DNA from: Candidatus Moraniibacteriota bacterium
GTDB taxonomy: Bacteria > Patescibacteriota > Minisyncoccia > Moranbacterales > GCA-2747515
DNA length: 64,000 bases
Direction: 5' to 3'
Assembly: GCA_016699795.1 (NCBI GenBank)
Contig: CP065011.1
Location: 687,318 to 751,317, forward strand
A model generated the notes under the pieces. The model saw only the letters and a program-made list of their open reading frames with translations, was not told where the DNA came from and did not search any database. Each line of letters opens with the position of its first letter. Position 1 is the first letter of the stretch. Of this stretch, positions 693 to 52,022 are shown one piece after another. The translations under genes were made by a program, and so were the position numbers.

Positions 693-806
693 TTTTTTGT
701 CGTTTTTTATTTTTAGGTGTATACTAAAAATAATATATATTTTGTAATTAAAGGTGGATAATTTTTAGTATAAAAAATCCACGATGAAATCAAAAAAAGA
801 AAAAGT

Positions 807-2741
807 ATGAGTGGATTGAAGAACTCCCTTTTCCCGGTTCTCGGGGTATTTTTTTCCAAAGGAATAACGTATCTTTTTGTTCGACAGAAAGAATCAAAAA
901 CAAAATTTCTTTTGAAAGGCGAATTGAATAAAGGAGATGGATTTTCTCTTTTGGAAAAAGATCTTGTAATTATTGATTTGGAAGAAAAAGAAGAAGATAT
1001 ATCTTTGTGTCGTGATTTTCGTTGTTTTAATGTTTCAGGAAGAACGCTTCGATTTGCTCTTACTTATATAAGTCTTGCTTCAGGGAGGGCAGAGCTTCGG
1101 ATTGCCCACTCCATGGATATGATACATTGGAAGACGGTATCTATACTTCCTTATATTCATTCCCCGGGAGCTCTTATTTATATAAAAGAATCAAATCAAT
1201 ACATTCTCTATCATGGGAAAAATTCTCTTTCTTCTTCCTTTTCTTTTGATTTACGAACATTTGAAACTAAAGGAGTCGCCTCTTCACTTCCCCCTATGAG
1301 CACGAAGAACACTCTTCGCGTTGCTGATGTGAAACGTGTCCCGGAAGGTTTATTAGTTCTTTATTTTGCATATAGTGAAACGGAGCTATTTCAAGCAAAA
1401 AATTGTGCTATTTATGGAGTACTTTTCGATAGAAAATTACCAGAAAAAATTCTTTGGCAAAGTGAAGAACCTCTTTGGGTTGTTTCTGATCGACATGCTG
1501 AACTTCGAGATCCGATATCTTTGGTGTTTCTTGATGATGAACATATTATTTCCTATTGGAGGGGAATGGATAATAAGTTGTACGCGTTTCAACATTGGAT
1601 AGGTGCTAAACAAAAAAAATCTCTCAAAAGAAAAGAGCTCAAAGAAACTGTTCATAAAGAAATTTCTTTGCCTTTAGAAAACCCACAGCCTTTGATTCAA
1701 CGACATATTGAAAATCCTATACTTTTACCAAAGAACGAAAATGAGTGGGAAACAAAGGCGGCTTTTAATCCCACAGCACTCTGTGATGACGAAGGTCGTG
1801 TACATATTGTTTATCGAGCTATTGGAGAAGGAGATGTTTCTGTTTTGGGATATGCCTTGAGTTATGACGGCGTTACTATTTTTGAACGGGAAGAAAAACC
1901 AATGTATGTGCCAAGAACGGTACATGAAGGCCTCTGCGAAAATGTTTTAAAAATGAGTGATTCTCTTTTTTCTCCTTATTCTTCTGGAGGAGGTGCTTGG
2001 GGAGGGTGTGAAGATCCTAAACTTACCAGAATAGAGGATACTGTCTATATGACATATGTAGCCTATAATGGTTGGGGACCTCCTCGTATAGCGTTAACTT
2101 CAATTCCTATGGAGGACTTTTTGAATCGAAATTGGGAAAATTGGAAGTACCCTATTCTTATCTCTCCTCCTGGAAAAGTTGCAAAAAGCGCGGCGATTTT
2201 GCCGGAAAAAATCAATGGTAAGTATGTTGTTTTTTATAGAATATTTCCCGATGTATTGGTGGATTTTGTTGATTCCCTTGATGATTTTGATGGAGAAAAT
2301 ACTTTCTTACAAAATATTCACCAAATAAGTCCAAGAGAGGGATTTTGGGATGCGGGAAAGTTTTCTTTTGGAGCTGCTCCTATTCGAACAAGTGAGGGTT
2401 GGTTGGTTATATACCATGCAGTAACAGGACGCCAAGAGTGGCCAGGAAGTGATCTTCGCTACAAAATAGGGGCCATGCTTTTGGACTTAGAGCATCCTGA
2501 GCGTGTTATCTGTCGAAGTTCTCGCCCTATATTAGAGCCAGATCTTGATTATGAAAATGGAGGTTGGAAAGCGGGTGTAATTTATCCATGCGGAGCTATA
2601 GTGCGAGAAGATATTTTGTATGTATATTATGGAGGTGCTGATACCGTGACGTGCGTTGCATCTGCTCCACTTCAGGAATTTTTGAAAATACTTTTGCAGT
2701 ATGGAGATCCTGAACTTACTCTTATAGAGGAAACATTTTGA
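807..2741 (+). CDS. GH130-like (DUF377, beta-mannoside phosphorylase family) protein with two tandem beta-propeller-type domains
   Basis: Second half has NPILLP..WE..AFNP..RVHIVYRAIG and C-terminal LYVYYGGADT signatures of GH130; N-terminal half is a more divergent copy; 644 aa is about twice a single GH130 domain. Confidence 0.6.
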   Translation: MSGLKNSLFPVLGVFFSKGITYLFVRQKESKTKFLLKGELNKGDGFSLLEKDLVIIDLEEKEEDISLCRDFRCFNVSGRTLRFALTYISLASGRAELRIAHSMDMIHWKTVSILPYIHSPGALIYIKESNQYILYHGKNSLSSSFSFDLRTFETKGVASSLPPMSTKNTLRVADVKRVPEGLLVLYFAYSETELFQAKNCAIYGVLFDRKLPEKILWQSEEPLWVVSDRHAELRDPISLVFLDDEHIISYWRGMDNKLYAFQHWIGAKQKKSLKRKELKETVHKEISLPLENPQPLIQRHIENPILLPKNENEWETKAAFNPTALCDDEGRVHIVYRAIGEGDVSVLGYALSYDGVTIFEREEKPMYVPRTVHEGLCENVLKMSDSLFSPYSSGGGAWGGCEDPKLTRIEDTVYMTYVAYNGWGPPRIALTSIPMEDFLNRNWENWKYPILISPPGKVAKSAAILPEKINGKYVVFYRIFPDVLVDFVDSLDDFDGENTFLQNIHQISPREGFWDAGKFSFGAAPIRTSEGWLVIYHAVTGRQEWPGSDLRYKIGAMLLDLEHPERVICRSSRPILEPDLDYENGGWKAGVIYPCGAIVREDILYVYYGGADTVTCVASAPLQEFLKILLQYGDPELTLIEETF

Positions 2742-2780
2742 AAAAATTAATGAGGCCTATTATTTATTTTTCTATAGCAT

Positions 2781-4703
2781 ATGAGAATTAAACGTCATCC
2801 CAATAATCCTCTCCTCGGACCCGACATTGATCACGAATGGGAATCTGAAGCGGTATTCAATCCTTGTGTCGTAGAAAGAAATGGGGAAAAACATTTTTTT
2901 TATCGAGCATTATCCGTTTTGAAACCGCACAATGGAGTGGAAATGAAAGTTTCTACTATTGGATATGTAAAGGGTGATGGAGATTGTTTGTCAGAAAGAA
3001 GTCTTCTTATTGAACCTCAAGAAGTTTGGGATTCTTTTGGTTGTGAAGATCCTCGAGTTACTTATATAGATGGTAAATATTATATTTTTTATACAGCACT
3101 TTCAAATTTCCCCCATACTCCAGAAGGAATAAAAATAGGAGTGGCAATATCGAAAGATCTTAAAACTTTTGAAAGACATTTAGTAACACCTTTTAATGCG
3201 AAGGCAATGGCGTTATTTCCAGAAAAAATAGGAGGAAAATTTGTTGCTGTTTTGAGTGTTGATACGGATCGATTGCCCGCTAAAATTGCCATAGCTGAAT
3301 TTGAAAAAGAAGAGGATATGTGGTCGAATGAATATTGGAAGGAATGGTATGAACATATCGATGAACATCTTTTGGATTTACAAAGAAAATTTCGAGACCA
3401 TATTGAAGTGGGCGCTGCCCCAGTAAAAACTGATGCTGGTTGGGTTTTCGTACATTCTTATATCTATGATTACAAAACAAACAAACCAAATTTTACGGTA
3501 GAAGTAGCTTTATTGGATCGGGAAAATCCTCGAAAAATTTTGGGACGAACACCTTCCCCAATACTATACCCAGAAAAAATGTACGAGCTAAATGGACAAG
3601 TTCCTCAAATCGTTTTTCCTTCTGGAGCACTTATTCAGGATGATATTCTTCATATTTATTACGGAGCAGCAGATACCCGCTGTTGTGAAGCTTCAGTTCA
3701 TTTAGCAGATCTTTTGGAGCAATTACAACAACATCCACCACGGATTAAATGTAAGCGTTTTGAACAAAATCCTATTATTTCTCCTCTCAAAGATCATTCA
3801 TGGGAAACAAAATATACTTTGAATCCAGGGGCTATTCGCTTGGAGGGATCAACACATATATTGTATAGAGCGATGGGTGAGGAAGATACTTCGGTATTGG
3901 GTTATGCGAGATCATCGGACAATGTACATATCGAAGAGCGTTTGAGTGATCCTATTTATGTACCAAGGAAAAATTTTGAAATTAAAAAAAAGGAAGGTTT
4001 TTCTGGTTGTGAAGATCCACGACTTACTTTGATAGATGATCGTATTTATATGTGCTATACAGCTTTTAATGGACAAGATACTGCGGGCGTTGGATTTACC
4101 TCTATTGCAAAAGATGATTTTCTTTCACGAAAATGGTTTTGGGAAGAACCTAAACTTATTTCTCCCGCAGGAAGATTTGATAAGAATGCATCTCTTTTAT
4201 CCAAAAAAGTTTATGGAAAATATATTTTTCTTCATAGGCTTGATGATTGTATTTGGGGAGATTATAGAGATAGCCTTGACATTTCTCAAGAGATAAATCC
4301 TTTGGGAGGAGAGATTCTTATGGATGTTCGCCCTGAATCTTGGGATAGTTTGAAAATTGGTATTGCTGGACCACTACTTCCTCTTAACGAAGAAGGAACC
4401 CAATGGTTACTCCTTTATCACGGAGTATCTAAATATGATAGTCAATACCGTATCGGAGCTGCTATTATAGAAGTTCTTCCTGGAGATGCGAATATAACGC
4501 ATCGATTGCCTTATCCTATCCTTGAGCCAGAAGAGGAATATGAACATCAAGGATATCGACCTGGAACAGTTTTTGCTTGTGGTTCAGTGGAATCTGAAGA
4601 AAAAATTTATATTTATTATGGAGCAGCTGATCAATATTGTGCAGGAGCTTTTGTTTCAAAGAAAAAACTTGTAGAAGAAGTTATGAAATTTTCAGTGAAA
4701 TAA
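2781..4703 (+). CDS. GH130-like protein, two tandem GH130 domains (paralogue of upstream gene)
   Basis: HPNNPLLGP..WESEAVFNP..FFYRA at N-terminus and NPIISP..WETKYTLNP..ILYRAMG in second half; both halves end with IYYGAAD-type motif. Confidence 0.65.
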   Translation: MRIKRHPNNPLLGPDIDHEWESEAVFNPCVVERNGEKHFFYRALSVLKPHNGVEMKVSTIGYVKGDGDCLSERSLLIEPQEVWDSFGCEDPRVTYIDGKYYIFYTALSNFPHTPEGIKIGVAISKDLKTFERHLVTPFNAKAMALFPEKIGGKFVAVLSVDTDRLPAKIAIAEFEKEEDMWSNEYWKEWYEHIDEHLLDLQRKFRDHIEVGAAPVKTDAGWVFVHSYIYDYKTNKPNFTVEVALLDRENPRKILGRTPSPILYPEKMYELNGQVPQIVFPSGALIQDDILHIYYGAADTRCCEASVHLADLLEQLQQHPPRIKCKRFEQNPIISPLKDHSWETKYTLNPGAIRLEGSTHILYRAMGEEDTSVLGYARSSDNVHIEERLSDPIYVPRKNFEIKKKEGFSGCEDPRLTLIDDRIYMCYTAFNGQDTAGVGFTSIAKDDFLSRKWFWEEPKLISPAGRFDKNASLLSKKVYGKYIFLHRLDDCIWGDYRDSLDISQEINPLGGEILMDVRPESWDSLKIGIAGPLLPLNEEGTQWLLLYHGVSKYDSQYRIGAAIIEVLPGDANITHRLPYPILEPEEEYEHQGYRPGTVFACGSVESEEKIYIYYGAADQYCAGAFVSKKKLVEEVMKFSVK

Positions 4704-4787
4704 AATTTTTGCAAAAAAGTATAATGCGAAATATATTCTTTTAGAAAGAAAAAATTGAATACACAGATTATATATAATAGGTTTTCT

Positions 4788-5231
4788 ATGAGAAAAAAAA
4801 TATTAAAAAAAATGCTACTCGTTTTTATTTTTGGTTTGATTTTTAGCATCCCTGTGATTTCAAAGGCCGCTCCGACAGGGGAGGGTGAGGGATTAGTTCC
4901 TTGTGGAGCTACTTCAAAACATTCAGATATGTGCAATTTATGCCATCTCGTCGTGGGAGTTGATAATATCGTTGATTATGTTTTGATGGTATTCGCAATT
5001 ATTGGCTTTCTTATGCTTGTTGTTGGAGGTATTACCTATATTGTTTCGGGAGGGAATCAATCAATAATAGGAGCTGCAAAAAAAACTATCTGGAGTGCTC
5101 TTGTAGGCTTTGCGATTGTTCTTTTGGCTTGGGTTATTATAAATACTGTTCTTCTTTATTTACTACCTCTCTCGGGTAATACGATTGGAGAAAAACTAAA
5201 AGCATGGTCTGAATTTAGTTGTGAGACTTAG
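4788..5231 (+). CDS. small secreted/membrane protein, signal peptide plus Cys-rich segment plus two C-terminal TM helices (VirB2/TrbC-pilin-like topology)
   Basis: MRKKILKK..signal peptide, CGA..CNLCH cysteine cluster, two hydrophobic helices; start chosen at internal Met 4788 rather than ORF start 4755. Confidence 0.4.
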   Translation: MRKKILKKMLLVFIFGLIFSIPVISKAAPTGEGEGLVPCGATSKHSDMCNLCHLVVGVDNIVDYVLMVFAIIGFLMLVVGGITYIVSGGNQSIIGAAKKTIWSALVGFAIVLLAWVIINTVLLYLLPLSGNTIGEKLKAWSEFSCET

Positions 5232-14078: not shown

Positions 14079-14933
14079 ATGATAGAGAATGTTGCAGATA
14101 TGCTTGTGGAAGCTCGTCGGGAAAGATATGCTGTTGGGGCTTTTAATGTTATGAATTTAGAAACAACACACGCTGTTTTGTTGGCTGCAAAGAAAATAAG
14201 AGTCCCGGTCATTCTTCAGTTTACAGAAAGTACTATGAGGTATATTGGGGGGCGTGCAATTTTTTATACAATTAAAAATCTTAGTGAATGGTATTATCCT
14301 GATGTTCGAGTGGGTATCCATTTGGATCATGGAAAAAATATAAAAGTAATTCAACGATGTTTGGAAATGGGACTTCCCTCCGTTATGTTTGACGGGTCTC
14401 GAAGAGACTATGAAGAGAATATTCGCCTTACTGCTGAAGTTGTTCGTATGGGACATAATCGAGGAGCCTCTGTTCAAGGAGAACTCGGTTCAGTTCCTTA
14501 TTCTAGTGAAATGAAAGATATTGAAATAGATTGGGATAAATATATGACAGATCCTGATCAGGCGAGAGACTTTGTGGCAAGAACGGGAGTAAATACTCTT
14601 GCCGTTGCTATTGGGAATGCTCATGGATTGGCTAGAGAACGAGTAACGCCTGATTATGATCGATTAAGTCGTATCGTTGAAAAAATAAATATTCCTATTG
14701 TTATGCACGGCGCTTCTGATTGGGAAAAAGATCGTGTTCACGAAGTCGTTTCTCGAGGAGTTTCTTGTTTTAATGTGGATACTAACTCTAGAGTAGCTTT
14801 TGCAGGGAGTCTTTCTCGGGCATTTCAAAAAGAAATAAAATTAAATACGGACTTGCGTCAAATCCTTGGAGATGCTCGAGACACCATGCAAGAAGCTGTT
14901 GAGAAAAAAATGCGAATGTTTTCTATGGAATAA
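14079..14933 (+). CDS. fba: class II fructose-bisphosphate aldolase
   Basis: N-terminal FbaA-type motif, GIHLDHG zinc site, characteristic class II FBA length. Confidence 0.85.
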   Translation: MIENVADMLVEARRERYAVGAFNVMNLETTHAVLLAAKKIRVPVILQFTESTMRYIGGRAIFYTIKNLSEWYYPDVRVGIHLDHGKNIKVIQRCLEMGLPSVMFDGSRRDYEENIRLTAEVVRMGHNRGASVQGELGSVPYSSEMKDIEIDWDKYMTDPDQARDFVARTGVNTLAVAIGNAHGLARERVTPDYDRLSRIVEKINIPIVMHGASDWEKDRVHEVVSRGVSCFNVDTNSRVAFAGSLSRAFQKEIKLNTDLRQILGDARDTMQEAVEKKMRMFSME

Positions 14934-14956
14934 ATATAAATAATCTAAAAATAAAT

Positions 14957-15949
14957 ATGAAAAAAATAGCTATAAATGGGTTTGGACGAATTGGTCGAGC
15001 TGCATTTAAAATTGCACTTTCTAAAAATGATATTAAAGTTGTTGCTATAAATGATTTGGCAGATGTCTCGTCTTTGGCACATCTTCTTAAATATGATACG
15101 GCGTACGGAAGATACGAAAGAGAAATTTCAAGCAAAGAAAAAACTCTTGTTGTAAATGGTGTTCAATTTCCGGTTTTTTGTGAATCAGATCCAAAGAATC
15201 TCCCATGGAGAGATCTTGATGTGGATGTTGTTTTGGAGTGTACTGGAAAATTTGTAAAACATGATGATGCAAAAATGCATCTTGATGCTGGAGCAAAAAA
15301 AGTAATTCTTTCAGCTCCTTCTAAAGGAGGCGAAGTCCCAACGGCTATTTTGGGAGTAAGTGATGAGTCGATATTTCAAGAGGGGGATTTTTTTTCTAAT
15401 GCATCTTGCACAACAAATTGCATTACTCCAGTAGTAGAAGTGATAGAAAGAATCTTTGGTATAGAAAAAGCTATGATGACAACTATTCATTCTTATACTG
15501 CTGATCAAAGACTTCAAGATTCTCCTCATGATGATATGAGAAGAGCTCGAGCTGCTGGGGCTAATATTGTTCCCACAACTACGGGTGCGGCTATTGCAAC
15601 AACGGAAGTTATTCCGAGTCTTTCGGGAAAATTTGATGGACTTTCAATGAGAGTTCCTACTATTGTAGTATCTTTGAGTGATATGACATTTGTCTTGAAA
15701 CGAAACACTACAGTTGAAGAAATAAATAATGCTTTAACAGAGGCTTCGAGAGAAAATCGTTATCGGGGAATTTTGGGAGTTACTGACAAACCTTTAGTTT
15801 CATCTGATTTTATAGGAGATTCTCGATCATCAATTGTTGATTTGGCACTTACTAAAGTGGTGGATGGTAATCTTGTGAAGGTGGTTTCTTGGTATGATAA
15901 TGAATGGGGATATTCTCAACGATTGGTTGAAATGGCACAAAAAGTATAG
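14957..15949 (+). CDS. gap: glyceraldehyde-3-phosphate dehydrogenase
   Basis: NGFGRIGR NAD-binding motif, ASCTTNC catalytic Cys region, WYDNEWGYS C-terminus. Confidence 0.95.
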   Translation: MKKIAINGFGRIGRAAFKIALSKNDIKVVAINDLADVSSLAHLLKYDTAYGRYEREISSKEKTLVVNGVQFPVFCESDPKNLPWRDLDVDVVLECTGKFVKHDDAKMHLDAGAKKVILSAPSKGGEVPTAILGVSDESIFQEGDFFSNASCTTNCITPVVEVIERIFGIEKAMMTTIHSYTADQRLQDSPHDDMRRARAAGANIVPTTTGAAIATTEVIPSLSGKFDGLSMRVPTIVVSLSDMTFVLKRNTTVEEINNALTEASRENRYRGILGVTDKPLVSSDFIGDSRSSIVDLALTKVVDGNLVKVVSWYDNEWGYSQRLVEMAQKV

Positions 15950-15999
15950 ATTGAAATTTCTTAGTAATATCCTGATTTAAAATTCTAAATACAGCCATT

Positions 16000-16026
16000 T
16001 TGAAGCAAAAACACTTCAATTTTATT
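16000..16026 (+). terminator. weak hairpin plus T-run after gap
   Basis: TTGAAG-8nt-CTTCAA followed by TTTTATT. Confidence 0.25.
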
Positions 16027-16284
16027 GGTTAAAGTTCTAGAATTTCGGTTTTAAGTTTAAAAAATTTTCTCAAAATATCTGGATATTCTGTTAAACTTTC
16101 ATCGAAATCACAGTAAAAATTTGAAAATCGCACTAGAAAACGGAGAGACCTTTAATATTTCTCAAAATTTTTGTGAATTTATTTCAGAAATTATTTGATT
16201 CATACTTTGAAATAAGAATTTTAAAAAACAATCTCTTGCATAAAGGGTCTTTTTAGGCTTGAATGAATTTTTAAGAATTATTAT

Positions 16285-17550
16285 ATGAATGAAATGAAAA
16301 AAATAGCAGAAATTATGGCGCCGGCTGGAAACTTTGAATCTTTAGAGGTTGCGATCCAGGCAGGGGCTGATAGTGTGTATTTTGGTGTGACACAACTGAA
16401 TATGCGAGCAGGATCTTCTTCGGCAAGTTTTGCTTTGAAGGATATAGAGAAAATCGTAGAACGCTGTAAAAAGGCAAAAGTAAAAACATATATTGCAGTA
16501 AATACACTTCTCTATGATCATGATATGGAAGTTGCTAAAAAAATAATTAATAGCGCCAAGGAATTTGGAGTGGATGCTGTTATTGCTTTTGACTTTGCTG
16601 TGTTGCAATACGCACAAGAAATTTCAATGCCGGCACATATTTCTGTTCAATTTTCTGTATCAAATTATGAAGCGCTTAAATTTTTTGCACCACTTACGAA
16701 TAGAGTAGTTTTGGCTCGTGAACTTACATTAGAGCAAATAAAAGCAATTCACGAAAAAATTCAAGAAGAACAACTTATGGGAAATGAGGGGCGATTGATG
16801 GAAATAGAAGCTTTCGCTCATGGGGCGCTTTGTGTAGCGCAATCGGGAAGATGCTATATGAGCCTTTTTACTGATAATGCTTCTGCTAATCGGGGTGTTT
16901 GTCGACAAAATTGTCGTGCTCAATATAAAGTTACGGATGTGGAAACGGGAAAGGAACTCGTTATTGATAATCACTACGTAATGAGCGCTTCTGATATTTG
17001 TACTATTGATTTTTTGGATAAACTTATTGACGCTGGTGTGAGTGTGCTGAAAATTGAAGGAAGGGGGCGTTCCCCAGAATATGTTTCTATTGTAGTTTCT
17101 ACATATAAAAAAGCTCTTAAAGATATTGAAAAAGGTAACTATACCCAAGAAAAAATAGAGAATTATTATAAAGATTTGAAGAAAGTTTTTAACCGAGGAC
17201 TTTCTCGAGGGAATTATTATCTTGGCCAAGAATTAGGTTCTTATAGCGGAAGCTATGGTTCACAGGCTCAGGAGTCTAAGGAATATATTGGGGAAGTGAC
17301 GAATTATTTTGGAAAAATATATATTGCTGAAATGAGAATGGATTCTGGAACTTTAGCGTGTGACGATGAGATATACGTTATCGGAGAAACTACAGGAATA
17401 CTTCGTATAAAGATTCAAGAATTAAGAATTGATAATGGTGAGAAAAGAAATAGCGTAGAAAAGGGTGGGCTTATAAGCTTTCCTTCAAAAGAAAAGCTTC
17501 GCAGAAAAGATCGTGTTTATAAAATTGTTTTGGCAAATCGTGAAAAATAA
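16285..17550 (+). CDS. peptidase U32 family protein
   Basis: MAPAGN..ADSVYFG.. N-terminal U32 signature and overall length/fold pattern. Confidence 0.8.
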   Translation: MNEMKKIAEIMAPAGNFESLEVAIQAGADSVYFGVTQLNMRAGSSSASFALKDIEKIVERCKKAKVKTYIAVNTLLYDHDMEVAKKIINSAKEFGVDAVIAFDFAVLQYAQEISMPAHISVQFSVSNYEALKFFAPLTNRVVLARELTLEQIKAIHEKIQEEQLMGNEGRLMEIEAFAHGALCVAQSGRCYMSLFTDNASANRGVCRQNCRAQYKVTDVETGKELVIDNHYVMSASDICTIDFLDKLIDAGVSVLKIEGRGRSPEYVSIVVSTYKKALKDIEKGNYTQEKIENYYKDLKKVFNRGLSRGNYYLGQELGSYSGSYGSQAQESKEYIGEVTNYFGKIYIAEMRMDSGTLACDDEIYVIGETTGILRIKIQELRIDNGEKRNSVEKGGLISFPSKEKLRRKDRVYKIVLANREK

Positions 17551-17650
17551 TTTTTTAAAAAAGGGGAGGTAAAAATTTGAAAATTTCATGATAGAAAGAG
17601 TTTGATGAGGATAGTTTCATAAAGGGAAGGTTTAAAAATACAGAGAAAAT

Positions 17651-19510
17651 ATGGATATTCAAAAAATTGAAGAAATTTCACGTAAAATTCGAAATTGGTG
17701 CGTAAAAATGACAACTATTGCGGGTTCAGGACACCTAACATCATCTCTTAGCGCTGTAGAAGCTATGGTGGTTTTGATGTTTTCCAAGAAGCATTTTTTT
17801 CGTTACGAACTAGAAAATCCTGAGCGTATAGATAATGACCGATTAATCTTTTCAAAAGGACATGCTTCGCCATTATTTTATTCACTTTGGGCTATGGCTG
17901 GTGGTGTGAATGTGGAAGATCTCAAAACATTCCGAACATTCGAAAGTGTTCTTGAAGGGCATCCCACAAGAAGATTTCCTTTTACGGAGGTTCCCACTGG
18001 ATCTCTTGGGCAAGGTATTGGTATTGGTGTAGGAGAAGCACTTTATGTAAAAAAATTTTTTAAGGAAAATCAGAATATTCCTCGTGTGTTTGTTCTCTTG
18101 GGGGATAGTGAATTGACTGAAGGTTCAGTTTGGGAATCAGCGATGATAGCTTCTCATTACAAACTTGATAATCTCGTGGCTATTGTGGATGTGAATCGTC
18201 TTGGTCAACGTGGAGAAACTGTAGATGGCTGGAATCTTAGTGTGATAGGAAAAAAATTTGAAGCATTTGGTTGGAATGTTGTAAATGTGGAAGATGGACA
18301 TTCTCCAGAACAAATTGAGAATGCTTACGAACTTGCAAGAGAAAAGAAAAAACCATGTGCAATACTTATGAAAACTTTGAAAGGAAAGGGAATTTCTTTT
18401 CTAGAAAATAAAAATAATTGGCATGGAAAAGCGCTTAATGATGATGAAGCAAAGCGGGCTTTGGAAGAAATTGATGATAGGAAAGAGGACTTTTTTTTGA
18501 AACTTCCGAAACCTGAAGAATATGAAAAGAGAGAGATTCTTGTTGATCTTTCAGAATATCAACAAGAAACTTTTACTAAAGGCTTACGAATGGCCCCTCG
18601 GAGAGTGTGTGGAAAGACTCTTGCTCGTATGGGGAAATATGATGAGCGGATCGTGGTTCTTGATGCAGAGGTGAGTAACTCTACTTCAAGCGAAGATTTT
18701 GGAAAGATATACCCAGAGAGATTTCTAGAAATGTTTATTGCTGAACAAAATATGGTTTCGGTCGCAACTGGCATGGCAAGACGTGGGGCGATACCTTTCA
18801 TTTTTACATTCGGAGCTTTTTTTTCTCGAGCATTCGATCAGATTCGTATGGCTGGCTATAGTGATGTCTCGATGATTTTCATTGGATCGCATGTAGGTGT
18901 TTCTATCGGTGAAGATGGTGTTTCGCAAATGGCTTTAGAGGATATGGCTATGTTTTCAACTATTGAAAATGTTCATATTTTTTCTCCTTCAGATGCTGTT
19001 TCTATGGAAAAATGTTTATATCTCGGAAAAGATTTAAAGGGGTTAACATATATTCGTTCTACGCGAGCTGAGCTCCCTGTTCTCTATCAAGAGAATGAAA
19101 TATTTTCCTTGGGCGGATCTAAAACACTTCAAGAAAGTAAGCAAGATGTTGTTACGGTTATTGTTTGTGGAATAACTGTACACGAAGCACTTCGTGCGTA
19201 TGAGATATTAAAAAAAGAGAATATCTTTATTCGTATTGTAGATGCTTATAGCATCCGGCCTTTAGATAAAGAGATGATTCTTCGAAATGGAGAAGAAACG
19301 AGTGCTATCATCACTGTAGAAGATCATAGAGGGCATGGAGGGCTTGCGGATGCTGTGAAAGAGATATTATGTGAAATTGAAGGAATGTCTGTAAGATTTC
19401 GATCCCTTGCTGTTCGTAAAAGGCCTCAAAGTGGAAAACCAGAACAACTTCTTCATTGGGAAGAAATTGACGCAGAGGCAATTGTAAAAACAGTAAAAGA
19501 TCTTTTATAG
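17651..19510 (+). CDS. tkt: transketolase (single-chain)
   Basis: GSGHLTSS..GHASP thiamine-PP binding N-domain, central pyrimidine-binding and C-terminal domains all present. Confidence 0.85.
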   Translation: MDIQKIEEISRKIRNWCVKMTTIAGSGHLTSSLSAVEAMVVLMFSKKHFFRYELENPERIDNDRLIFSKGHASPLFYSLWAMAGGVNVEDLKTFRTFESVLEGHPTRRFPFTEVPTGSLGQGIGIGVGEALYVKKFFKENQNIPRVFVLLGDSELTEGSVWESAMIASHYKLDNLVAIVDVNRLGQRGETVDGWNLSVIGKKFEAFGWNVVNVEDGHSPEQIENAYELAREKKKPCAILMKTLKGKGISFLENKNNWHGKALNDDEAKRALEEIDDRKEDFFLKLPKPEEYEKREILVDLSEYQQETFTKGLRMAPRRVCGKTLARMGKYDERIVVLDAEVSNSTSSEDFGKIYPERFLEMFIAEQNMVSVATGMARRGAIPFIFTFGAFFSRAFDQIRMAGYSDVSMIFIGSHVGVSIGEDGVSQMALEDMAMFSTIENVHIFSPSDAVSMEKCLYLGKDLKGLTYIRSTRAELPVLYQENEIFSLGGSKTLQESKQDVVTVIVCGITVHEALRAYEILKKENIFIRIVDAYSIRPLDKEMILRNGEETSAIITVEDHRGHGGLADAVKEILCEIEGMSVRFRSLAVRKRPQSGKPEQLLHWEEIDAEAIVKTVKDLL

Positions 19511-34969: not shown

Positions 34970-37900
34970 TTGGGAAATCACAACATGGGTATGGCTATTG
35001 AAAATGAAAATGAAAAGGGTGCGGAACAATTGGAAAAACAACAAAAACAGTTTAATGATAGAATAGTTACAGTAAGAAATTCCATACGAAATAAATTGCA
35101 AGAGACGCGAAAAAAAGAGGGTTTGGAAGAAGGAAATAATTCAGTCGAAAGAGAAAATCCATGGAAGCTTCTTTTTAATGATATAAACTATCATCAAGGA
35201 ATGTCTTCTCTTACAGAAGAACTGGTAATGGATTTTGAAAAAAGATTTCAGGAGCTTTCGGATAATTCTGTTGGAATGAAAAATGAAGCAACTTCGGAAA
35301 ATACAAAAGAAAAAATAGCAAATGATTTTTCTAAAGAGATTCAAGAAATGGAAGTATTGGATGTAAAACTCCAAGAAAAACAACGTAGTTTGGATGATAT
35401 TGATGAACAAATCGAAGAACTTCTTGGTCAGGGTAAAAATATTCAGTTGGATATAGATCAATTGGAAGAAAGAATGGGGACTATTCCGGAAAAAGAATGG
35501 TTTGAGGCTTTAAGAGATGTGGAAAATATAAATCATGATATAAAAACAAAACATAGAAGAAAAAGTGAAATTGAAAAAGAAGTAAATACTTTGCATTCGC
35601 AAGTTTTGGAACGTTTTGAAAAAATTCCCGAAGAAAAAAAACAAGAACTGAAATTGAGAGAAAGTCTTTTTTCTATAAGGATTTTTGGTGAGCATAAAGA
35701 GAAGAAAGTAAATAAAAATGAAGATATGGAGAATTTTTTGAGAGAAAAAGGTGAGCAATTACCCTCCGGGGAGTCTCAAAAAAAACAGGTGAATGAAAAA
35801 AGTAATCCTCAAGAGGAGGAAATAGTTCTTTCTTCTCATGATACGCAAGAAGGAAAGAAACATGAAGAACTTCGAGAAAAGATGAGTGATGCAATGCAGG
35901 AATTGGCGAAGAAAAAAACTGAAAGAGAGAGGTTTGTGGAGGAGAAACGAGAACTTGAAGATAGGAGTAGAAAATATGGCATAGAATTGAATGAAGATTT
36001 TGATAATATTGAAAAACAAATTGAAATAATTGAAAAAGATATACAAAAGCAAGAAGAGTTTGTGCAGGTGATGCAGAAAGAATTTGAAGGGGGTTTTGTG
36101 AATAATTCTGGAGGCACCCCGAATGATTTTGAAAAAGAAACTCTCTCACAGTCTTCAGGTGAAACTGAAAAAACACAAGAGGAAGAAAAAGAAAGTAAAG
36201 AAAGTGAAATTCTTGAGGGAGAGTATATTCCCAAAAACAAAGTTTCAGGGAGTTCGGAAAGAGAAGAGCGGGTTGTTATTAACGGTGAATACTCGAGAGT
36301 GGACGATAAAGAAGAAACAAACTCTTCGCAAAAATCCGAAAAAGGCGAGCAGCGTTTTTCTCCAGAAGAATTTTCAAATCGAAAACAACGTATAGAGGAT
36401 ATTCAAAAGAAAATTGATGGCTATGAGGAAGAGAAGAATAAATTACAAAAAGAATTAAATCTTTTGGGAGGTGAGCAAAAAGAAATCGAAGCAGAATTAA
36501 GTTCCTTGGAAGGGGGGATGAAACAAGAGGAGCGAGGCGGAAAGACTGTCTATAGAGGAACGCTTTCAGTGGGAGAGATTGAAGAATTAAAAAAGAGAAG
36601 AGATGAAAATAATCGAAAAATACAAGAAAAAAAGGCGTCTATAGAGGTAATTCAAATATCCATCCAAAATGCACAAGATGAACAAAAAGCTCTAAAAGAA
36701 AAGTTTATTGCGGATTTTGATATGTACGCGGGTAGAGTTTCTCCGGGGGAAGAAGCTCAGACATTACTTGATTTTTTTGAAGATGCGGAGAGATACCGGA
36801 AAGAACTTGATGGTTCTTTAGATATTTTGCCTAAGAATGTTTCTGAAAATAAGGAGGGACCATCAGAAAAAACAGAAGAAAAACCTCTTTCTGCTACGGA
36901 CGAAAAAAAGAACTCTGAGAAGGGGGATGAAGAAGGTGAATTTTTGCGAAAACTTACGAAGGATTTGGAAGATGCTCGAGAGGCATTTGCTTTGGATATG
37001 AAAAATCCCGAGAAGAAAAAAAAGTATGATGAATATTTGCAAAACTACAATAGCGAAGTGGCGAAAAGATTTTCGGATTATATGGAAGCGAAAGAATTTG
37101 AACAGATGATGCGTGCCAACGAAATAGGTGAACAAATAAAAATAAAAGAAGCGATAGCGGACGATCGATTGAAGGATGTTTCTTTTATGGGCAAGGCAAA
37201 AAATATGTTTATGAGTGGGATAGAGAAGTATCAAAAACTTCCATTCAAACAAAAAATTGCTCTTAGTGTTGGACTTATAGGTGCCGGAGCTTTAGGAGGT
37301 GCTGCTGTGGGTGCGACAGCAATAGGCATGACTGCTGCCGGACTTGGAATGCGAGCCCTTTCTTTTACATCGTCTTCTGTGGGTTTCAATACTTTTTTTA
37401 AGGATATTTCCGAAAAACTTTATAGTGGTGCAGATAGAGAAAGGGTTGATAATGCAAGAGATTCTTTCGGTGAAATTTATGGGAAAAAAAGTGAATTCTA
37501 TAAAGAAAATCCTTTAGAAAAAGCGAAATATATTCAGAATTTGTTGGGACAATCTTCTTCTCAAATTGCGGATCGAATAGAAAAAAGAAATTATCGAGAT
37601 AAATATTTACGATGGACAGGGTCGGTAGGATCCGCTCTTGCTTTAACTATGGCGTCTCGATGTTTGGGAGAAGCTGCTGCAAGTAAAATTGGAGAATGGT
37701 TTTCAGACGCGCCTACTTTAAAAATTTCCCCTGAATATATCCAAACGCCACCATCAGATCCTATTACAGGGGGTGGAATGGCGTTGGATGATGCATCTTG
37801 GAATAATGATTCAGATTTTCCAAATGGGGGTGATGATGGAGGACAAAGCTCGTTTACACCAGAAACTTCGCAGGGAGTTTCTTCGGAAACTATTCCTGGA

Positions 37901-39799
37901 GGGGGAGTTTCTTTAGATGAATCATCATGGGAGCAAAATCTTTCGGACAAGAGTCCTGATATGGAGAAGACATTTGAAACTGTTGAAATGAAAATGTCTC
38001 CTGAAGAATATGCGAAGGCACATCCAGAACTTTTTAAATCTTTGGAAGGACGTGTTTGGATGGATAATGATACTCAATTAAGAGTTGGTACTGATGGTAT
38101 GATAACGGGTGCTGATAGGAATGAATTAAGTCTTCGTTGGGGAGGTGGCGGTGATGGCGTAGACGCTCGAGGCAATTATGTTTTTAGTGTGGCTAAAATG
38201 ACTTCTGATGGTTCTTTTCATAAAGGATTGTCTGAAGATGCAATCAAGGCTATACAAAGTGGAGAATTAAAAATGATTTTTACTTTAAATGAAAACCTTC
38301 AGGGACAATATATAGAAGTTCCTGTAGAATCTAATGGAAACATTATAATTGATCCTCAATCTTCTGCAGGAAAAATATTATTTTCTCAAAATGGAGGAAG
38401 ATCTGTTTTCCTTGGACATACAGCAGAAGTTGGTATTTTTGGAGACGACGGAAAATTCACCGTTCTCGCAACTCATAAAGGAAACGGTTTGGAATCTATT
38501 ATGGAGAGCGTGCAGAATGAAATTCCTGAGGAAGTTACTTCGAATATTACTACAGAAACAGCTCTTCCTGAGGACTTGTCTATAAAACCATCTCCTGAAA
38601 TTCCTGAAAAAATGCATTTTGAGGAGTCAAGATTTTTTGGAGAAGATATGCAACATAGGGTAAAAAGTGGTGATCGAATATGGAATATTTTAGGAGAAAG
38701 GACAGAGAACTTTTTTTCAGATCGTCCAGATATTTCCTCTGAACAAAGGAAAATATTCATAGATTCTTTGAAAGATTCCTTAGAAAATATGAAGCCTGAG
38801 GAATTAAAAGCAGGAGGAATATCGAGTGGAAATATTGATAGAATTTTTGCAGGTCGCGATACTATTGATTTTTCAAAACTTCTCGATGATGAGGATTATC
38901 TTCGCGCCATAAAACAATCAGGTATTACTTTGGAGGCGCAAGAAACTATGGCAAGTGAAATACCTTCCCAAATAGAAGTAACTCCTGAGATAACGGAAGC
39001 ACCTGCCACGTCGTCAGAAGAAGTTTTACAAGCGCAACCAGAAATGGTTACAGAAGAATTTCCTTCAGAAACAGCCACAGAGGAAGTTCTTGAAACAGCG
39101 GAAGAAACAATCCCACAAGACGTAGAAACTTCTCCAATTCCAGAAACTTTACCAAAAGAAGAAATTCCTTCAGAAACAGATATAGAGGAAATTCTTGAGA
39201 CAGTGGAAGAAACAACTCCACAAGACGTAGAAACTTCTCCAATTCCAGAAACCTTACCAACACCAGAAATTCTTTCAATTGGAGAAAGTCGTCCTTTTGG
39301 AGAGTTAATCGGGGAGGGTCCTATTACGGAGCAAGGACTTAAGTCTTTGGGTTCTGTGGGAGAGGATATTTGGAAATATGTGAGCACTTCTTTGGAAAGA
39401 AATTATCTAGATGTACAAAACTCTACAATACAAGACACATTAAAGGCATTAGAAGTACAGAGACTTTCTGATGGTAGTATCTCTCTTGTTTCAGAAGGAG
39501 AGACGTCTTTTCTGGAAGTTATGAGAGAATTTCCCAAAGATGCTCTTGCTTTTGATAGATATGAAGAATTTTTTGATTCTATTTCAGATAAGGATAGAAA
39601 TGATATTTCCCTTATAGTGGAACAGAATATAAATGATCCTTCAAAATTTGAAAAAAATCTAAGAAGCATATTCTCTTTTAATGGAGTTTCAGAGAATAAA
39701 ATTGAAGAATTATTAAGATCAAGAATTGGTGAAAGTAGAGAACAATTTTTCCAAAGAACAGTAACTCAAATAGCTATGCTTAAAAATATTAGTAAATAA
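34970..39799 (+). CDS. giant (1609 aa) hypothetical protein: N-terminal acidic coiled-coil (~750 aa), Gly/Ala-rich TM segment, Gly/Asp-rich middle, C-terminal tandem PETLP repeats
   Basis: Continuous ORF; KIALSVGLIGAGALGGAAVGATAIGMTAAGLGMRALSF hydrophobic segment; EEVLETAEETIPQDVETSPIPETLP repeated twice near C-terminus. Confidence 0.6.
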   Translation: MGNHNMGMAIENENEKGAEQLEKQQKQFNDRIVTVRNSIRNKLQETRKKEGLEEGNNSVERENPWKLLFNDINYHQGMSSLTEELVMDFEKRFQELSDNSVGMKNEATSENTKEKIANDFSKEIQEMEVLDVKLQEKQRSLDDIDEQIEELLGQGKNIQLDIDQLEERMGTIPEKEWFEALRDVENINHDIKTKHRRKSEIEKEVNTLHSQVLERFEKIPEEKKQELKLRESLFSIRIFGEHKEKKVNKNEDMENFLREKGEQLPSGESQKKQVNEKSNPQEEEIVLSSHDTQEGKKHEELREKMSDAMQELAKKKTERERFVEEKRELEDRSRKYGIELNEDFDNIEKQIEIIEKDIQKQEEFVQVMQKEFEGGFVNNSGGTPNDFEKETLSQSSGETEKTQEEEKESKESEILEGEYIPKNKVSGSSEREERVVINGEYSRVDDKEETNSSQKSEKGEQRFSPEEFSNRKQRIEDIQKKIDGYEEEKNKLQKELNLLGGEQKEIEAELSSLEGGMKQEERGGKTVYRGTLSVGEIEELKKRRDENNRKIQEKKASIEVIQISIQNAQDEQKALKEKFIADFDMYAGRVSPGEEAQTLLDFFEDAERYRKELDGSLDILPKNVSENKEGPSEKTEEKPLSATDEKKNSEKGDEEGEFLRKLTKDLEDAREAFALDMKNPEKKKKYDEYLQNYNSEVAKRFSDYMEAKEFEQMMRANEIGEQIKIKEAIADDRLKDVSFMGKAKNMFMSGIEKYQKLPFKQKIALSVGLIGAGALGGAAVGATAIGMTAAGLGMRALSFTSSSVGFNTFFKDISEKLYSGADRERVDNARDSFGEIYGKKSEFYKENPLEKAKYIQNLLGQSSSQIADRIEKRNYRDKYLRWTGSVGSALALTMASRCLGEAAASKIGEWFSDAPTLKISPEYIQTPPSDPITGGGMALDDASWNNDSDFPNGGDDGGQSSFTPETSQGVSSETIPGGGVSLDESSWEQNLSDKSPDMEKTFETVEMKMSPEEYAKAHPELFKSLEGRVWMDNDTQLRVGTDGMITGADRNELSLRWGGGGDGVDARGNYVFSVAKMTSDGSFHKGLSEDAIKAIQSGELKMIFTLNENLQGQYIEVPVESNGNIIIDPQSSAGKILFSQNGGRSVFLGHTAEVGIFGDDGKFTVLATHKGNGLESIMESVQNEIPEEVTSNITTETALPEDLSIKPSPEIPEKMHFEESRFFGEDMQHRVKSGDRIWNILGERTENFFSDRPDISSEQRKIFIDSLKDSLENMKPEELKAGGISSGNIDRIFAGRDTIDFSKLLDDEDYLRAIKQSGITLEAQETMASEIPSQIEVTPEITEAPATSSEEVLQAQPEMVTEEFPSETATEEVLETAEETIPQDVETSPIPETLPKEEIPSETDIEEILETVEETTPQDVETSPIPETLPTPEILSIGESRPFGELIGEGPITEQGLKSLGSVGEDIWKYVSTSLERNYLDVQNSTIQDTLKALEVQRLSDGSISLVSEGETSFLEVMREFPKDALAFDRYEEFFDSISDKDRNDISLIVEQNINDPSKFEKNLRSIFSFNGVSENKIEELLRSRIGESREQFFQRTVTQIAMLKNISK

Positions 39800-40757: not shown

Positions 40758-43217
40758 ATGCAACAAGAAACTGTTAATATTATTTTCCTTTTTATTTCTA
40801 TAGCGTTAGGTCTTTTTGCTTTGGGAAGCGGTGCTTATATTATGTTGTCAGGACTATTTGGTCTCAAGAAAAAAATTGAGATGTCTTTGCAATTTAGTAC
40901 GGAATTAGTCCGGATGGTTTTAAATGATGTAAAGAGATCGGATGAACGAGAAGTGGGTCCTGAAAAATGGAGAGAAGAAATAGGTGCTATGGAACAACTT
41001 TTTTCTTCTTTCGCTAACATGCGTTCGAAGAGAGCTTTTCTTGGATCGTCTATACCTTTTATAATATCGTTAGAAATCGCCAATCCCTCTGATAGTGAAG
41101 AGATATTCTTTTATCTATCTTTTCCTCGAAAATATAGAGAGGATATCGAAAAACAAGTGCATAGCTTTTTTCCTCACGCATCTATTGAATCTATAGAAGA
41201 TTATACTATTTTTCGACCAAAGAGTTTTGTTGCCACAGCAACGTTGGCACTAAAATCAACCTCAGCATTGCCCGTACTTACATATCAAGAAATGAACACG
41301 GATCCTCTTAATGAGATAACTAATGCTATGAGCAAACTTCAGACTGAGACGGAAGGAGCTGCTTTGCAATTAATTTTATATCCAGCTGGAGGTTCTTGGC
41401 GAAATGAAGGACGAAGTATCGCTCATGAAATGCAACAAGGAAAACGATTAAAAGATGCAAGAAAACAATCTTTCCTTGCAAAATTAGGAGATGGATTAGG
41501 CTCAGTATTTCTGAGTGCTTTTTTGGGAAAAAAGATCGAATCTCAAAAAGATGATAAATATATACAACTCACTCCTGAAGAGCAGGATCTTGTAAAAGCT
41601 ATCGAACAAAAAACAAGGAAACCTGCTTTTTATACGAATATACGAATTCTTTCTTCTGGGGATACACAAGAAAGAGCGACACAAATTCTTTCTCAGATGG
41701 AAAATGCTTTCTCTCAATTTGAAAGATCGGATATTAACTTTTTTCGCATAAAAGAACGATCTGAAACAAAAAAAATTGGTTTTCAATACATAATGAGATT
41801 TTTTAATCGGCGGGGAGCTATGCTTCTTGGAGTTGAAGAGATTGCTAGTATTTACCATTTCCCCATATCATCTACGAAAACCCCGAAAATAAAATGGCTT
41901 AAGGCTGGAAGCGCACCTCCACCCACACTTATTCCTCGAGAGGGAATTTTATTAGGACATAATGATTATAGGAATGTCATAACGGATGTGAGGCTTTCTC
42001 AGGCTGACCGAAGGAGACATCTTTATGTCATAGGTCAAACTGGTGTTGGAAAATCTGTTTTTCTTACGGAGCTTATTAAACAAGACGTTCGAGAGGGCCG
42101 AGGCGTTTGCTATATCGATCCTCATGGAGATGCTATAGAAGAAATTCTTTCTGCTGTTCCTAAGGAGAGAATTGAAGATGTTATACATTTTGATCCTGCT
42201 GATACAGGGAGACCTTTCGGTCTTAATATGCTCGAATATGATAAACCTGAACAGAAGACATTTGTTATAAATGAGATGATTAATATTTTTGATAAATTGT
42301 ACGACCTACGTCAAACAGGAGGTCCAATGTTTGAGCAGTATATGAGAAACGCCATGCTTCTCATTATGGAGGATACTGAATCAGGATCGACACTTTTGGA
42401 AATTCCACGCGTTTTGTCTGACGAGCAATTTCGTCGCATGAAGCTTTCAAAATGTAACAATCCTATTGTAAAGAACTTCTGGATAAAGGAAGCAGAAAAG
42501 GCTGGTGGAGATGCAGCTTTAGCTAATGTTGTTCCTTATATAACTTCAAAATTGACACAATTTATTTCTAACGACATGATGCGCCCTATCATTTCACAGC
42601 AACGTTCCACTATTGATTTTCGAAAATGCATGGATGAAGAGAAGATACTTCTTATTAACCTATCAAAAGGAAGAATTGGAGAAATTAATAGTTATCTTTT
42701 AGGAATGATTATTGTTGGGAAAATTCTCATGGCTTCACTTTCTCGTGTTGATATATCTGAAAACGAACGAAAGGATTTTTATTTATACATCGACGAGTTT
42801 CAAAATGTTACAACAGATTCTATATCGCAAATTCTTTCAGAGGCAAGAAAATATCGATTAAGCTTGACCATCGCTCATCAATTTATAGGACAGCTTAGCG
42901 AGGGCATTTCTAAGGCAGTTTTTGGTAATGTGGGTTCAATGGCAGCATTTCGAGTTGGTCCGGAAGATGCAGAATTTTTAGAAAAACAGTTTGCTCCCAT
43001 ATTCTCAGCAAGCGATCTTCTTAATGTGGATAATTATAGTTGTTTTGTTCGTCTTCTGCTTAATAATGAATCAACGAAGCCTTTTAATATAAAAACATAC
43101 CCTTCAACTCAGGGAAATATAGATCAAGTTTCTTTAATAAAACAATATTCTCGCCTTCGATATGGGAGAGACGCTAAGATAATCGAAGAAGAAATACGAA
43201 ATCGTATTGTTATGTAA
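40758..43217 (+). CDS. membrane-anchored P-loop ATPase of the VirD4/TraD/TraG coupling-protein (AAA_10/DUF87-like) family
   Basis: N-terminal TM helices; Walker A GQTGVGKS, DPHGD motif (CYIDPHGDAIEEI), Walker B-like YLYIDEFQN, TIAHQ sensor; ~300-aa N-terminal domain of unknown function. Confidence 0.6.
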   Translation: MQQETVNIIFLFISIALGLFALGSGAYIMLSGLFGLKKKIEMSLQFSTELVRMVLNDVKRSDEREVGPEKWREEIGAMEQLFSSFANMRSKRAFLGSSIPFIISLEIANPSDSEEIFFYLSFPRKYREDIEKQVHSFFPHASIESIEDYTIFRPKSFVATATLALKSTSALPVLTYQEMNTDPLNEITNAMSKLQTETEGAALQLILYPAGGSWRNEGRSIAHEMQQGKRLKDARKQSFLAKLGDGLGSVFLSAFLGKKIESQKDDKYIQLTPEEQDLVKAIEQKTRKPAFYTNIRILSSGDTQERATQILSQMENAFSQFERSDINFFRIKERSETKKIGFQYIMRFFNRRGAMLLGVEEIASIYHFPISSTKTPKIKWLKAGSAPPPTLIPREGILLGHNDYRNVITDVRLSQADRRRHLYVIGQTGVGKSVFLTELIKQDVREGRGVCYIDPHGDAIEEILSAVPKERIEDVIHFDPADTGRPFGLNMLEYDKPEQKTFVINEMINIFDKLYDLRQTGGPMFEQYMRNAMLLIMEDTESGSTLLEIPRVLSDEQFRRMKLSKCNNPIVKNFWIKEAEKAGGDAALANVVPYITSKLTQFISNDMMRPIISQQRSTIDFRKCMDEEKILLINLSKGRIGEINSYLLGMIIVGKILMASLSRVDISENERKDFYLYIDEFQNVTTDSISQILSEARKYRLSLTIAHQFIGQLSEGISKAVFGNVGSMAAFRVGPEDAEFLEKQFAPIFSASDLLNVDNYSCFVRLLLNNESTKPFNIKTYPSTQGNIDQVSLIKQYSRLRYGRDAKIIEEEIRNRIVM

Positions 43218-49541: not shown

Positions 49542-49550
49542 CGGAGGTTT
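49523..49550. terminator. 13-bp-stem hairpin spanning wecA-like stop; likely bidirectional terminator between convergent genes
   Basis: AAAACCCCCGTCA-GT-TGACGGAGGTTTT. Confidence 0.5.
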
Positions 49551-49583
49551 TATCCACTAAAGAACAAACATTATACAGGAAAA

Positions 49584-52005: not shown

Positions 52006-52022
52006 GAGTAAAGATTTTTAGT

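Follow-up and report, generated by a model that had tools for sequence, protein, structure and literature searches.

Results

Two adjacent genes encode tandem GH130-type propellers

The 64,000-nt stretch analyzed here (the window) comes from a Candidatus Moraniibacteriota metagenome-assembled genome (MAG) of the Patescibacteria, or candidate phyla radiation (CPR), and near its start two neighboring genes, g1 and g2, each encode two GH130-like β-propeller halves in a row, named g1N, g1C, g2N and g2C (Table 1). We propose that g1 and g2 form a cytoplasmic GH130-propeller set acting on β-mannosides, in which g1C and g2C would be phosphorylases, g2N would work by hydrolysis and g1N would be a relic, and we give this reading a probability of about 60%. 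Both open reading frames (ORFs) are uninterrupted and lie on the same strand with 39 nt between them, and no terminator-like site was found in that gap. The g1 protein is identical to NCBI entry IPN70_03330, encoded on a 1.19-Mb contig of this MAG and annotated there as a hypothetical protein. Neither g1 nor g2 has a signal peptide, since their N-terminal residues are already propeller strands (the N-terminus of g2, MRIKRHPNNPLLGP, is propeller from the outset), and both proteins are predicted to be cytoplasmic because their N-termini are part of the propeller. A CPR genome paper that mentions two GH130 genes of a Microgenomates genome in passing also describes GH130 enzymes without signal peptides.

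Table 1. Positions of the two genes, their domains and the upstream promoter-like site in the window
Feature	Position	Strand	Description
g1	807-2741	+	644 aa; degenerate GH130-like propeller followed by a GH130 phosphorylase-type propeller
g1N	807-1610	+	aa 1-268 of g1; GH130-derived five-bladed propeller, putative pseudo-enzyme domain
g1 linker	1611-1691	+	aa 269-295; Lys/Glu-rich, low-confidence, pLDDT <50 at residues 268-288
g1C	1692-2708	+	aa 296-634 of g1; GH130 domain with phosphorylase-type signature
g2	2781-4703	+	640 aa; two full GH130 domains
g2N	2781-3740	+	aa 1-320 of g2; GH130 domain without phosphate-contacting basic residues
g2C	3744-4697	+	aa 322-639 of g2; GH130 domain of predicted canonical β-1,2-mannoside-phosphorylase type
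Promoter-like site TTGTCG-17-TATACT	697-725	+	Upstream of g1; weak evidence

Family membership and fold of the four halves

Three halves are recognized directly by the Pfam model PF04041 (Glyco_hydro_130, gathering score 26 bits), with 165.6 bits for g1C (E 2e-48), 144.3 for g2N and 136.8 for g2C (E 1e-39), and BLASTP aligns them with one another at 36% (g1C-g2C), 29% (g1C-g2N) and 26% (g2N-g2C) identity. For g1N, Pfam gave no GH130 match even at E ≤ 10, and BLASTP against the other halves returned nothing significant. Despite this, a profile built from 114 g1N homologs is colinear over ~250 columns with the profiles of the other three domain classes (hhalign probability 99.1-99.4%, E 5e-22 to 1e-18), scoring 155 to g1C, 145 to g2C and 132 to g2N, and g1N makes a weak colinear match to the NCBIfam β-1,2-mannobiose phosphorylase model. 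The AlphaFold model of g1N contains 19 β strands, with a predicted local distance difference test score (pLDDT) of 91.2 and a predicted template modeling score (pTM) of 0.89, and the top 35 PDB matches found with Foldseek are all GH130 structures, the five-bladed propeller fold being nearest to solved members of this family. Profile and model thus identify g1N as a GH130 derivative. The model of the full g1 protein has a pLDDT of 89.9 and a pTM of 0.61.

The original prediction, made from the sequence alone, had described each gene as encoding ~640 aa with two GH130-like halves, the N-terminal ones, above all that of g1, being more divergent. Both descriptions agree with our results, on Pfam evidence for three halves and on profile and fold evidence for g1N, so that all four halves align to GH130. 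It had also taken GH130 proteins to be normally single-domain, which fits the report that >99% of predicted phosphorylases are monomodular (PMC7660257).

Among characterized proteins, Teth514_1788 and Teth514_1789 are the best sequence and structure matches of g1C, g2N and g2C (phmmer E 1e-39 to 1e-51). The nearest PDB entries to g1C are 9FJ8 and 7FIP (Foldseek TM 0.86 for the g1C domain), and 7FIP, a β-1,2-mannobiose phosphorylase, is also the best match of g2C (E 2e-49). On NF052550, the equivalog model of β-1,2-mannobiose phosphorylase, the scores are 25 bits for g1N, 215 for g1C, 182 for g2N and 208 for g2C against a cut-off of 450, and g2N scores 75 bits on NF058598 (BT3780 type), for which the cut-off is 550. 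As no domain reaches an equivalog threshold, the domains of g1 and g2 represent new GH130 lineages.

g1C and g2C carry a phosphorylase-type active site

Active-site residues were scored in 239 homologs, cut into domains and aligned with Teth514_1788 and Teth514_1789, giving families of 114 sequences for the g1 domains and 119 for the g2 domains. The positions, in UhgbMP numbering, were the proton donor D104, the phosphate pair R168/H231, the +1/−1 subsite residues R59 and D304, and the β-1,2 markers Glu103 and Lys150. Table 2 of Li et al. 2020 (PMC7660257) gives an Asp as proton donor and an Arg/His pair for phosphate, with Glu plus Lys marking β-1,2 specificity. A 2025 structural paper on Uhgb_MS (PMC12814180) adds that K184, R202 and R242 bind phosphate or diphosphate and that the R242A substitution lowers both activities; Uhgb_MS numbering was taken directly from an alignment of Uhgb_MS with g1C. 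This scoring against characterized GH130 enzymes, which the original prediction had suggested, yielded the full signature for g2C and g1C and not for g2N or g1N.

In g2C the signature consists of R363, E411, D412, K468, R486, H547 and D617, all seven kept in 114-119 of 119 homologs (the R168 equivalent in 119, the H231 equivalent in 114), and a Lys occupies the position of Uhgb_MS R242. Carrying the full β-1,2-mannoside phosphorylase signature, g2C is predicted to be of the canonical phosphorylase type. The corresponding residues of g1C are R337, E402, D403 (proton donor), K460, R478, K518, H537 and D612; across its family the catalytic Asp and the subsite residues are all conserved and the Arg is kept in 111/114, so this copy is likewise predicted to be of phosphorylase type. 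Just ahead of the catalytic motif g1C has a family-specific insertion of 22 residues, SPYSSGGGAWGG. Two features are invariant in the g1C, g2N and g2C families alike: the proton-donor Asp (UhgbMP D104, BT3780 D142), which is D403 in g1C (114/114), D90 in g2N (119/119) and D412 in g2C (119/119), and the β-1,2 marker pair, formed by the Glu beside this Asp and a Lys at the position of UhgbMP R150.

g2N has a rebuilt phosphate pocket

g2N keeps R42, E89, D90 as proton donor, K141 and D298, and the equivalents of R59, Glu, Asp, Lys and D304 are retained in all 119 members of its family, with a single Asp-to-Glu change at D304. The phosphate site is different: S159 stands at the position of Arg168 (R202 in Uhgb_MS), E209 at that of R242 and S226 at that of His231 (H261), while Uhgb_MS K184 corresponds to K141. 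These replacements hold throughout the family, where the Arg position is Thr or Ser in 119/119 homologs and the His position is Ser or Cys in 116, Ala or Gly in 2 and His in only 1. Where g1C and g2C have a Lys conserved at 92-97%, 98% of the g2N family has Glu (Glu209 here), and a conserved inserted pair, T162-D163, follows immediately after the old Arg position. Of the basic residues that contact phosphate, g2N has thus kept only the Lys, which serves in reading the +1 sugar as well, and a carboxylate has been gained in the pocket.

The g2N family is as strongly conserved as that of g2C (mean pairwise identity 0.53 vs 0.54; 77 vs 79 columns conserved at ≥90%), which argues for a working domain with a changed nucleophile site rather than a decaying one. 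As all three phosphate-contacting basic residues are replaced, g2N is probably not a phosphorylase, and since both Arg equivalents are lost, a GDP-mannose-dependent transferase is argued against as well. Replacement of basic residues by carboxylates is known to turn a GH130 phosphorylase into a hydrolase (Cuskin 2015), and this precedent favors hydrolysis: by analogy, g2N is most likely hydrolase-like, acting without phosphate. In g2N the basic residues are absent, as in the BT3780 type, and Glu209 and Asp163, conserved in that part of the domain, are putative counterparts of E227 and E268, the water-activating carboxylates of BT3780; spacing did not decide whether they correspond one to one.

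g1N is a degenerate propeller

In the g1N family the equivalent of the catalytic Asp is Asp in 52/114 sequences (D70 in this copy), Gly replaces the Arg168 equivalent in 109/114, and Tyr or Phe stands at the His position, so that at the family level no catalytic, phosphate-binding or subsite residue is conserved. Mean pairwise identity is 0.28 for g1N vs 0.59 for g1C in the same proteins, and g1N has zero invariant columns and 11 columns conserved at ≥90%, all of a structural kind. These patterns mark g1N as an apparently decayed, catalytically dead GH130 relic, a putative pseudo-enzyme domain that is probably a structural partner of g1C. The earlier expectation that some halves have lost function is thus borne out by g1N, in every catalytic, phosphate and subsite residue, and by g2N in its phosphate pocket. 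A single-sequence search with g1N among 1.84 billion representatives returned 84 relatives only. In most full-length ones (~600-650 aa) the matching part is the N-terminus, whereas in one, P0295, the match is confined to the C-terminal half; ~30 of the 84 are shorter than 500 aa and were taken as presumed truncated gene calls. No clear second architecture of g1N was found among these 84 relatives, which leaves room for a stand-alone form.

The gene pair is conserved across Patescibacteria

Among 8000 scored candidates each, at least 2006 homologs were found for g1 and at least 5791 for g2, and a scan with one genome per GTDB species found a g2-type gene in at least 596 genomes. Among the matches listed, g2 homologs are ~50% identical across Moranii-, Roizman-, Lipton-, Gottesman-, Levybacteria and others, and the carriers, judged from records with CPR names, are mostly Patescibacteria. 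Many third-party MAG records with the gene pair are titled "uncultured Gammaproteobacteria" (loci L010, L016, L018 and L023-L027 plus ~15 more, with a locus GC content of 0.34-0.53), and a few are titled Dehalococcoidia, Omnitrophota or Babeliales; these labels are unconfirmed, as are the Saccharibacteria labels that some loci carry. The Gammaproteobacteria titles look unreliable, so taxonomic counts based on titles need care.

Gene order was counted in the best 80 species loci. In 67 of them g1 is the immediate upstream neighbor of g2, always in this order and on one strand, and the g1 stop is separated from the start of the g2N domain match by a median of 7 nt. The upstream gene has the g1N-g1C architecture in 36 loci and is a single-domain g1C (~370-425 aa) in 29-31, so that about half of the g1 genes are without g1N, and g2 stands alone in 13, four of these at contig edges. 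The two-domain architecture of g2 is present in 80/80 inspected loci. The pair is therefore a tight two-gene operon conserved across Patescibacteria and not a local duplication. The part that is always kept consists of two genes with three differentiated domains, to which g1N is an optional addition. Four proteins (P0009 and P0128-P0130; 970-1110 aa) are fusions of three GH130 domains, of which the second and third are g2N-type and g2C-type; the first has Ser for Arg and, in a neighbor-joining (NJ) tree, sits near the g1C clade without joining it. These fusions suggest a functional coupling of g1 and g2.

Evolutionary history of the domain classes

The NJ tree groups g2N with the middle fusion domain (bootstrap 100) and g1C with the single-domain forms (95); support is only 50 for g2C with the third fusion domain, the weakest of the three classes. 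On the g1C tree, whose branch support was not assessed, g1 forms that have g1N are interspersed with forms that lack it, a pattern that fits repeated loss or gain of g1N. The three well-conserved classes are old, separate orthologous groups.

The original prediction had suggested domain fusion followed by gene duplication. This scenario is neither needed nor supported, given the age of the classes, the conserved pair and the loci with a single-domain g1C, and the last of these (29-31/80) argues that g1 is not a copy of the two-domain g2. As to the phylogeny proposed along with it, which was to show whether fusion predates duplication, the NJ tree does not resolve the deep branching order and g1N is too divergent to be placed. 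With no special affinity of g1N for g2N either, the order of fusion and duplication is undecidable from these data. We also considered g2 as a fusion of Teth514_1788/1789-type neighbors and rejected this origin, because Teth514_1788 and Teth514_1789 form a group of their own (bootstrap 100) outside the CPR classes.

Surroundings of the genes and other features of the window

Promoter-like sites are not more numerous in the region than expected from shuffled sequence. The flanking genes are of a housekeeping kind (tgt, a type IV secretion system [T4SS]-pilin-like ORF, rhodanese, fmt, def, priA and patatin), with no evident link to sugars. The pilin-like ORF is a small one directly 3′ of g2 (4755-5231, +) that matches PF18895, the T4SS pilin family, with E 4e-6. 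In a 2025 preprint, the T4SS of Patescibacteria is connected to monoderm conjugation machinery.

Farther downstream, genes for class II fructose-bisphosphate aldolase, GAPDH and transketolase lie together with a U32 peptidase between them (14079-19510, +). These carbon genes could use hexose phosphate derived from mannose-1-phosphate. A small glycan-assembly cluster (48495-52958, +) encodes a GT4-family (PF00953) phospho-sugar transferase, a Polysacc_synt flippase and a GT2 glycosyltransferase. This cluster and the GH130 pair are 44 kb apart, and no connection between them was established. Four large ORFs (34970-39799, +, 1609 aa; 40758-43217, +, 819 aa; 43240-45630, −, 796 aa; 46736-48466, +, 576 aa) have essentially no Pfam matches, the sole one being a sub-threshold AAA_22 in the 819-aa ORF. 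Downstream of a tRNA-Lys gene (60595-60668), GC content rises from ~33-36% to 39-44% up to position 64000; ORFs in this segment are short or without a Pfam match, no rRNA or other Rfam family was found, and the segment (60595-64000) may have been inserted at the tRNA as an island. Nearly every 2-kb bin of the window (1-64000) has a positive GC skew, and the cumulative skew rises monotonically regardless of gene strand; a similar strand-composition disparity has been highlighted in a closed Microgenomates genome (PMC7143001).

Discussion

Domain homology, fold, residue patterns, operon conservation and the lack of signal peptides were obtained directly in this work. From there, we propose that g1 and g2 together would act as one cytoplasmic machine for β-mannosides, with a residue signature that points to β-1,2 linkages. 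g1C and g2C would be inverting phosphorylases, with phosphate attacking C1, the Asp passing a proton to the leaving group via O3 of the substrate, and α-mannose-1-phosphate as the released product; by analogy with Teth514_1788/1789 the two may prefer different chain lengths. g2N would bind the same sugar, would be unable to use phosphate and unlikely to use GDP-mannose, and could hydrolyze its substrate with Glu209 and/or Asp163 activating water. g1N, apparently dead and dispensable, as about half of the lineages lack it, would support g1C structurally. Substrate, the choice between phosphorolysis and hydrolysis, and physiological direction are what we infer here.

Some neighboring genes in other genomes are consistent with such a role. 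Eleven nt downstream of P0128, the 1110-aa triple-GH130 protein, lies a gene for a 114-aa PF01050 cupin of the mannose-6-phosphate isomerase type (both in L005, 6001-9689), and 2 nt downstream of P0017, a 685-aa double-GH130 protein, lies one for a cytidylyltransferase-HAD/phosphomannomutase (PMM) fusion protein (both in L006, 6001-9320). When the flanking ORFs of the 80 loci were clustered, a related small cupin occurred in 7 (the representative tested, from locus L081, gave no Pfam match) and ABC/HlyD-type transport genes in 9-12. The PF01050 cupin, the cytidylyltransferase-HAD/PMM fusion and the small cupin suggest mannose phosphates. We also looked for conserved neighbors that would name a pathway and rejected the candidates, as only the transport genes (9-12/80) and the cupin (7/80) recur.

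Several results weigh against the proposed function. All halves fall far below the NCBIfam equivalog cut-offs (25-215 bits vs 450-550), so the substrate assignment relies on a handful of residues. The H231 position is split in the g1C family (Gln in 56 and His in 50 of 114; His in this copy), and none of the other halves is farther from the BT3780-type hydrolases than g2N is. How the two g1 domains are placed relative to each other is predicted with low confidence (pTM 0.61), which makes a scaffold role of g1N a guess. Flanking genes are not conserved in the 80 loci, and neither phosphomannomutase nor mannose-6-phosphate isomerase was found in the window by tblastn or Pfam. In the literature, we found no biochemical data on any CPR GH130 protein.

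Part of the original prediction was that the odd halves might bind carbohydrate, which is possible for g1N and less likely for g2N, where the catalytic Asp is kept and conservation equals that of g2C. In a less likely alternative to the main reading, g2N is not an enzyme and binds mannosides so as to deliver substrate to g2C or hold it in place. Its nucleophile site is lost, an active domain in tandem with an inactive paralog is a common arrangement, and domain placement is uncertain in g1, the only tandem protein modeled (pTM 0.61 vs 0.89 for g1N alone). Yet the proton-donor Asp, the adjacent Glu and the subsite Arg, Lys and Asp are invariant in 119/119 sequences, and Glu209 and Asp163 are fixed in the old phosphate pocket. 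Pure binding would not need the catalytic Asp, and real decay in these proteins looks like g1N.

Another possibility is a reserve-polymer cycle, in which the phosphorylase domains build and break down an intracellular β-1,2-mannan, like the mannogen of Leishmania, while g2N trims or primes the chains. The nearest characterized relative, Teth514_1788, makes long β-1,2-mannans as a dual phosphorylase/transferase (PMC12814180), and the GH130-like enzymes of Leishmania, bacterial in origin, run a cycle of this kind. All domains are predicted to be cytoplasmic, and the module is kept in hundreds of ~1 Mb genomes with no sugar-import genes conserved alongside. We nevertheless consider such a cycle improbable: such a polymer is not on record for these organisms, no gene forming GDP-mannose or mannose-1-phosphate is consistently linked, and the sequence does not indicate the direction of the reaction. 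A fuller version, in which g2N is an independently evolved non-phosphorolytic hydrolase or transglycosylase, joined to a phosphorylase within a single polypeptide, and the g1N pseudo-enzyme replaces one subunit of a GH130 oligomer, is more speculative still.

We also doubt that the substrate is something other than free β-1,2-manno-oligosaccharides, such as a different β-mannoside or a cell-envelope or host glycoconjugate, because the β-1,2 Glu/Lys pair is invariant in the three conserved classes and the nearest structures are all β-1,2 enzymes. This alternative draws on the scores well under the equivalog thresholds, on the family-specific 22-residue insertion beside the active site of g1C, and on the range of GH130, which spans β-1,2-, β-1,3- and β-1,4-mannosides with various +1 sugars (PMC7660257). 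Finally, the idea that the double-domain ORFs are frameshift or assembly artefacts joining single-domain genes has next to no chance and was rejected, as both ORFs are uninterrupted and the same architecture recurs in >200 homologous proteins from independent assemblies and in all 80 g2 loci.

Patescibacteria lack most biosynthetic pathways. The present module is among the few carbohydrate modules conserved across their ~1 Mb genomes, and it may point to an overlooked shared substrate or reserve compound. GH130 proteins are usually seen as single-module cytoplasmic phosphorylases; here, a bacterial radiation has fixed sets of three or four propellers. Fold, family and chemistry are already known; the novelty lies in the fixed multi-domain organization and its spread across the radiation, in the pseudo-enzyme g1N and in the way the g2N pocket has been rebuilt. 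g1N is a clear case of decay from enzyme to pseudo-enzyme, and g2 would give enzymologists a natural phosphorylase/non-phosphorylase pair in one polypeptide, with S159, E209 and S226 as candidate switch residues.

The closest parallel to the phosphorylase domains is the Teth514_1788/1789 pair of Thermoanaerobacter sp. X-514 (GH130_6; PDB 9FJ8 and 7FIP), a 1,2-β-oligomannan phosphorylase and a β-1,2-mannobiose phosphorylase. Their E/D, K, R, H, D signature is also that of g1C and g2C, and like g1 and g2 they are adjacent paralogs working on one substrate class. They differ in being single-domain proteins of ~300 aa, with no counterpart of a g2N-type or g1N-type domain.

For g2N, the relevant comparison is with the GH130_3 β-1,2-mannosidases BT3780 and BACOVA_03624 (PDB 5A7V and 3QC2), in which the proton-donor Asp, its Glu neighbor and the β-1,2 Lys are likewise retained. 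Basic residues for phosphate binding are missing from these enzymes, and their pocket contains carboxylates (E227 and E268 in BT3780). Unlike g2N, which is predicted to be cytoplasmic and is fused to a phosphorylase-type domain, these mannosidases are secreted or periplasmic, single-domain proteins with signal peptides. As g2N is closer to the phosphorylase models than to the BT3780 model, any hydrolase function would have arisen independently.

The mannogen enzymes MTP1-7 of Leishmania (CAZy GT108) and dual-activity GH130 enzymes such as Uhgb_MS resemble the g1 and g2 domains in their five-bladed fold and proposed mechanism, and the MTP paralogs have also specialized through changes of the phosphate-pocket Arg and jointly handle a β-1,2-mannan. 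In Foldseek, 6Q4X, the structure of MTP2, matched weakly, at rank 43. GT108 is, however, a separate family whose transferase-only members have His at the Arg position and not Ser/Thr plus Glu, and g2N differs from Uhgb_MS in lacking both Arg equivalents that hold the diphosphate of GDP-mannose.

Tandem GH130 proteins have been recorded before. Li et al. 2020 (PMC7660257) counted four GH130-GH130 entries in CAZy in November 2018, with both modules in one node of their sequence network, and our literature search for tandem GH130 or GH130/DUF377 in CPR found only these entries and the passing Microgenomates mention. The CAZy entries resemble g2 in having two GH130 modules per protein; there they are mentioned as a rarity, and residue analysis, operon context and taxonomic spread are not part of that study, whereas here the two-module protein occurs in every g2 locus inspected, with its two pockets differentiated.

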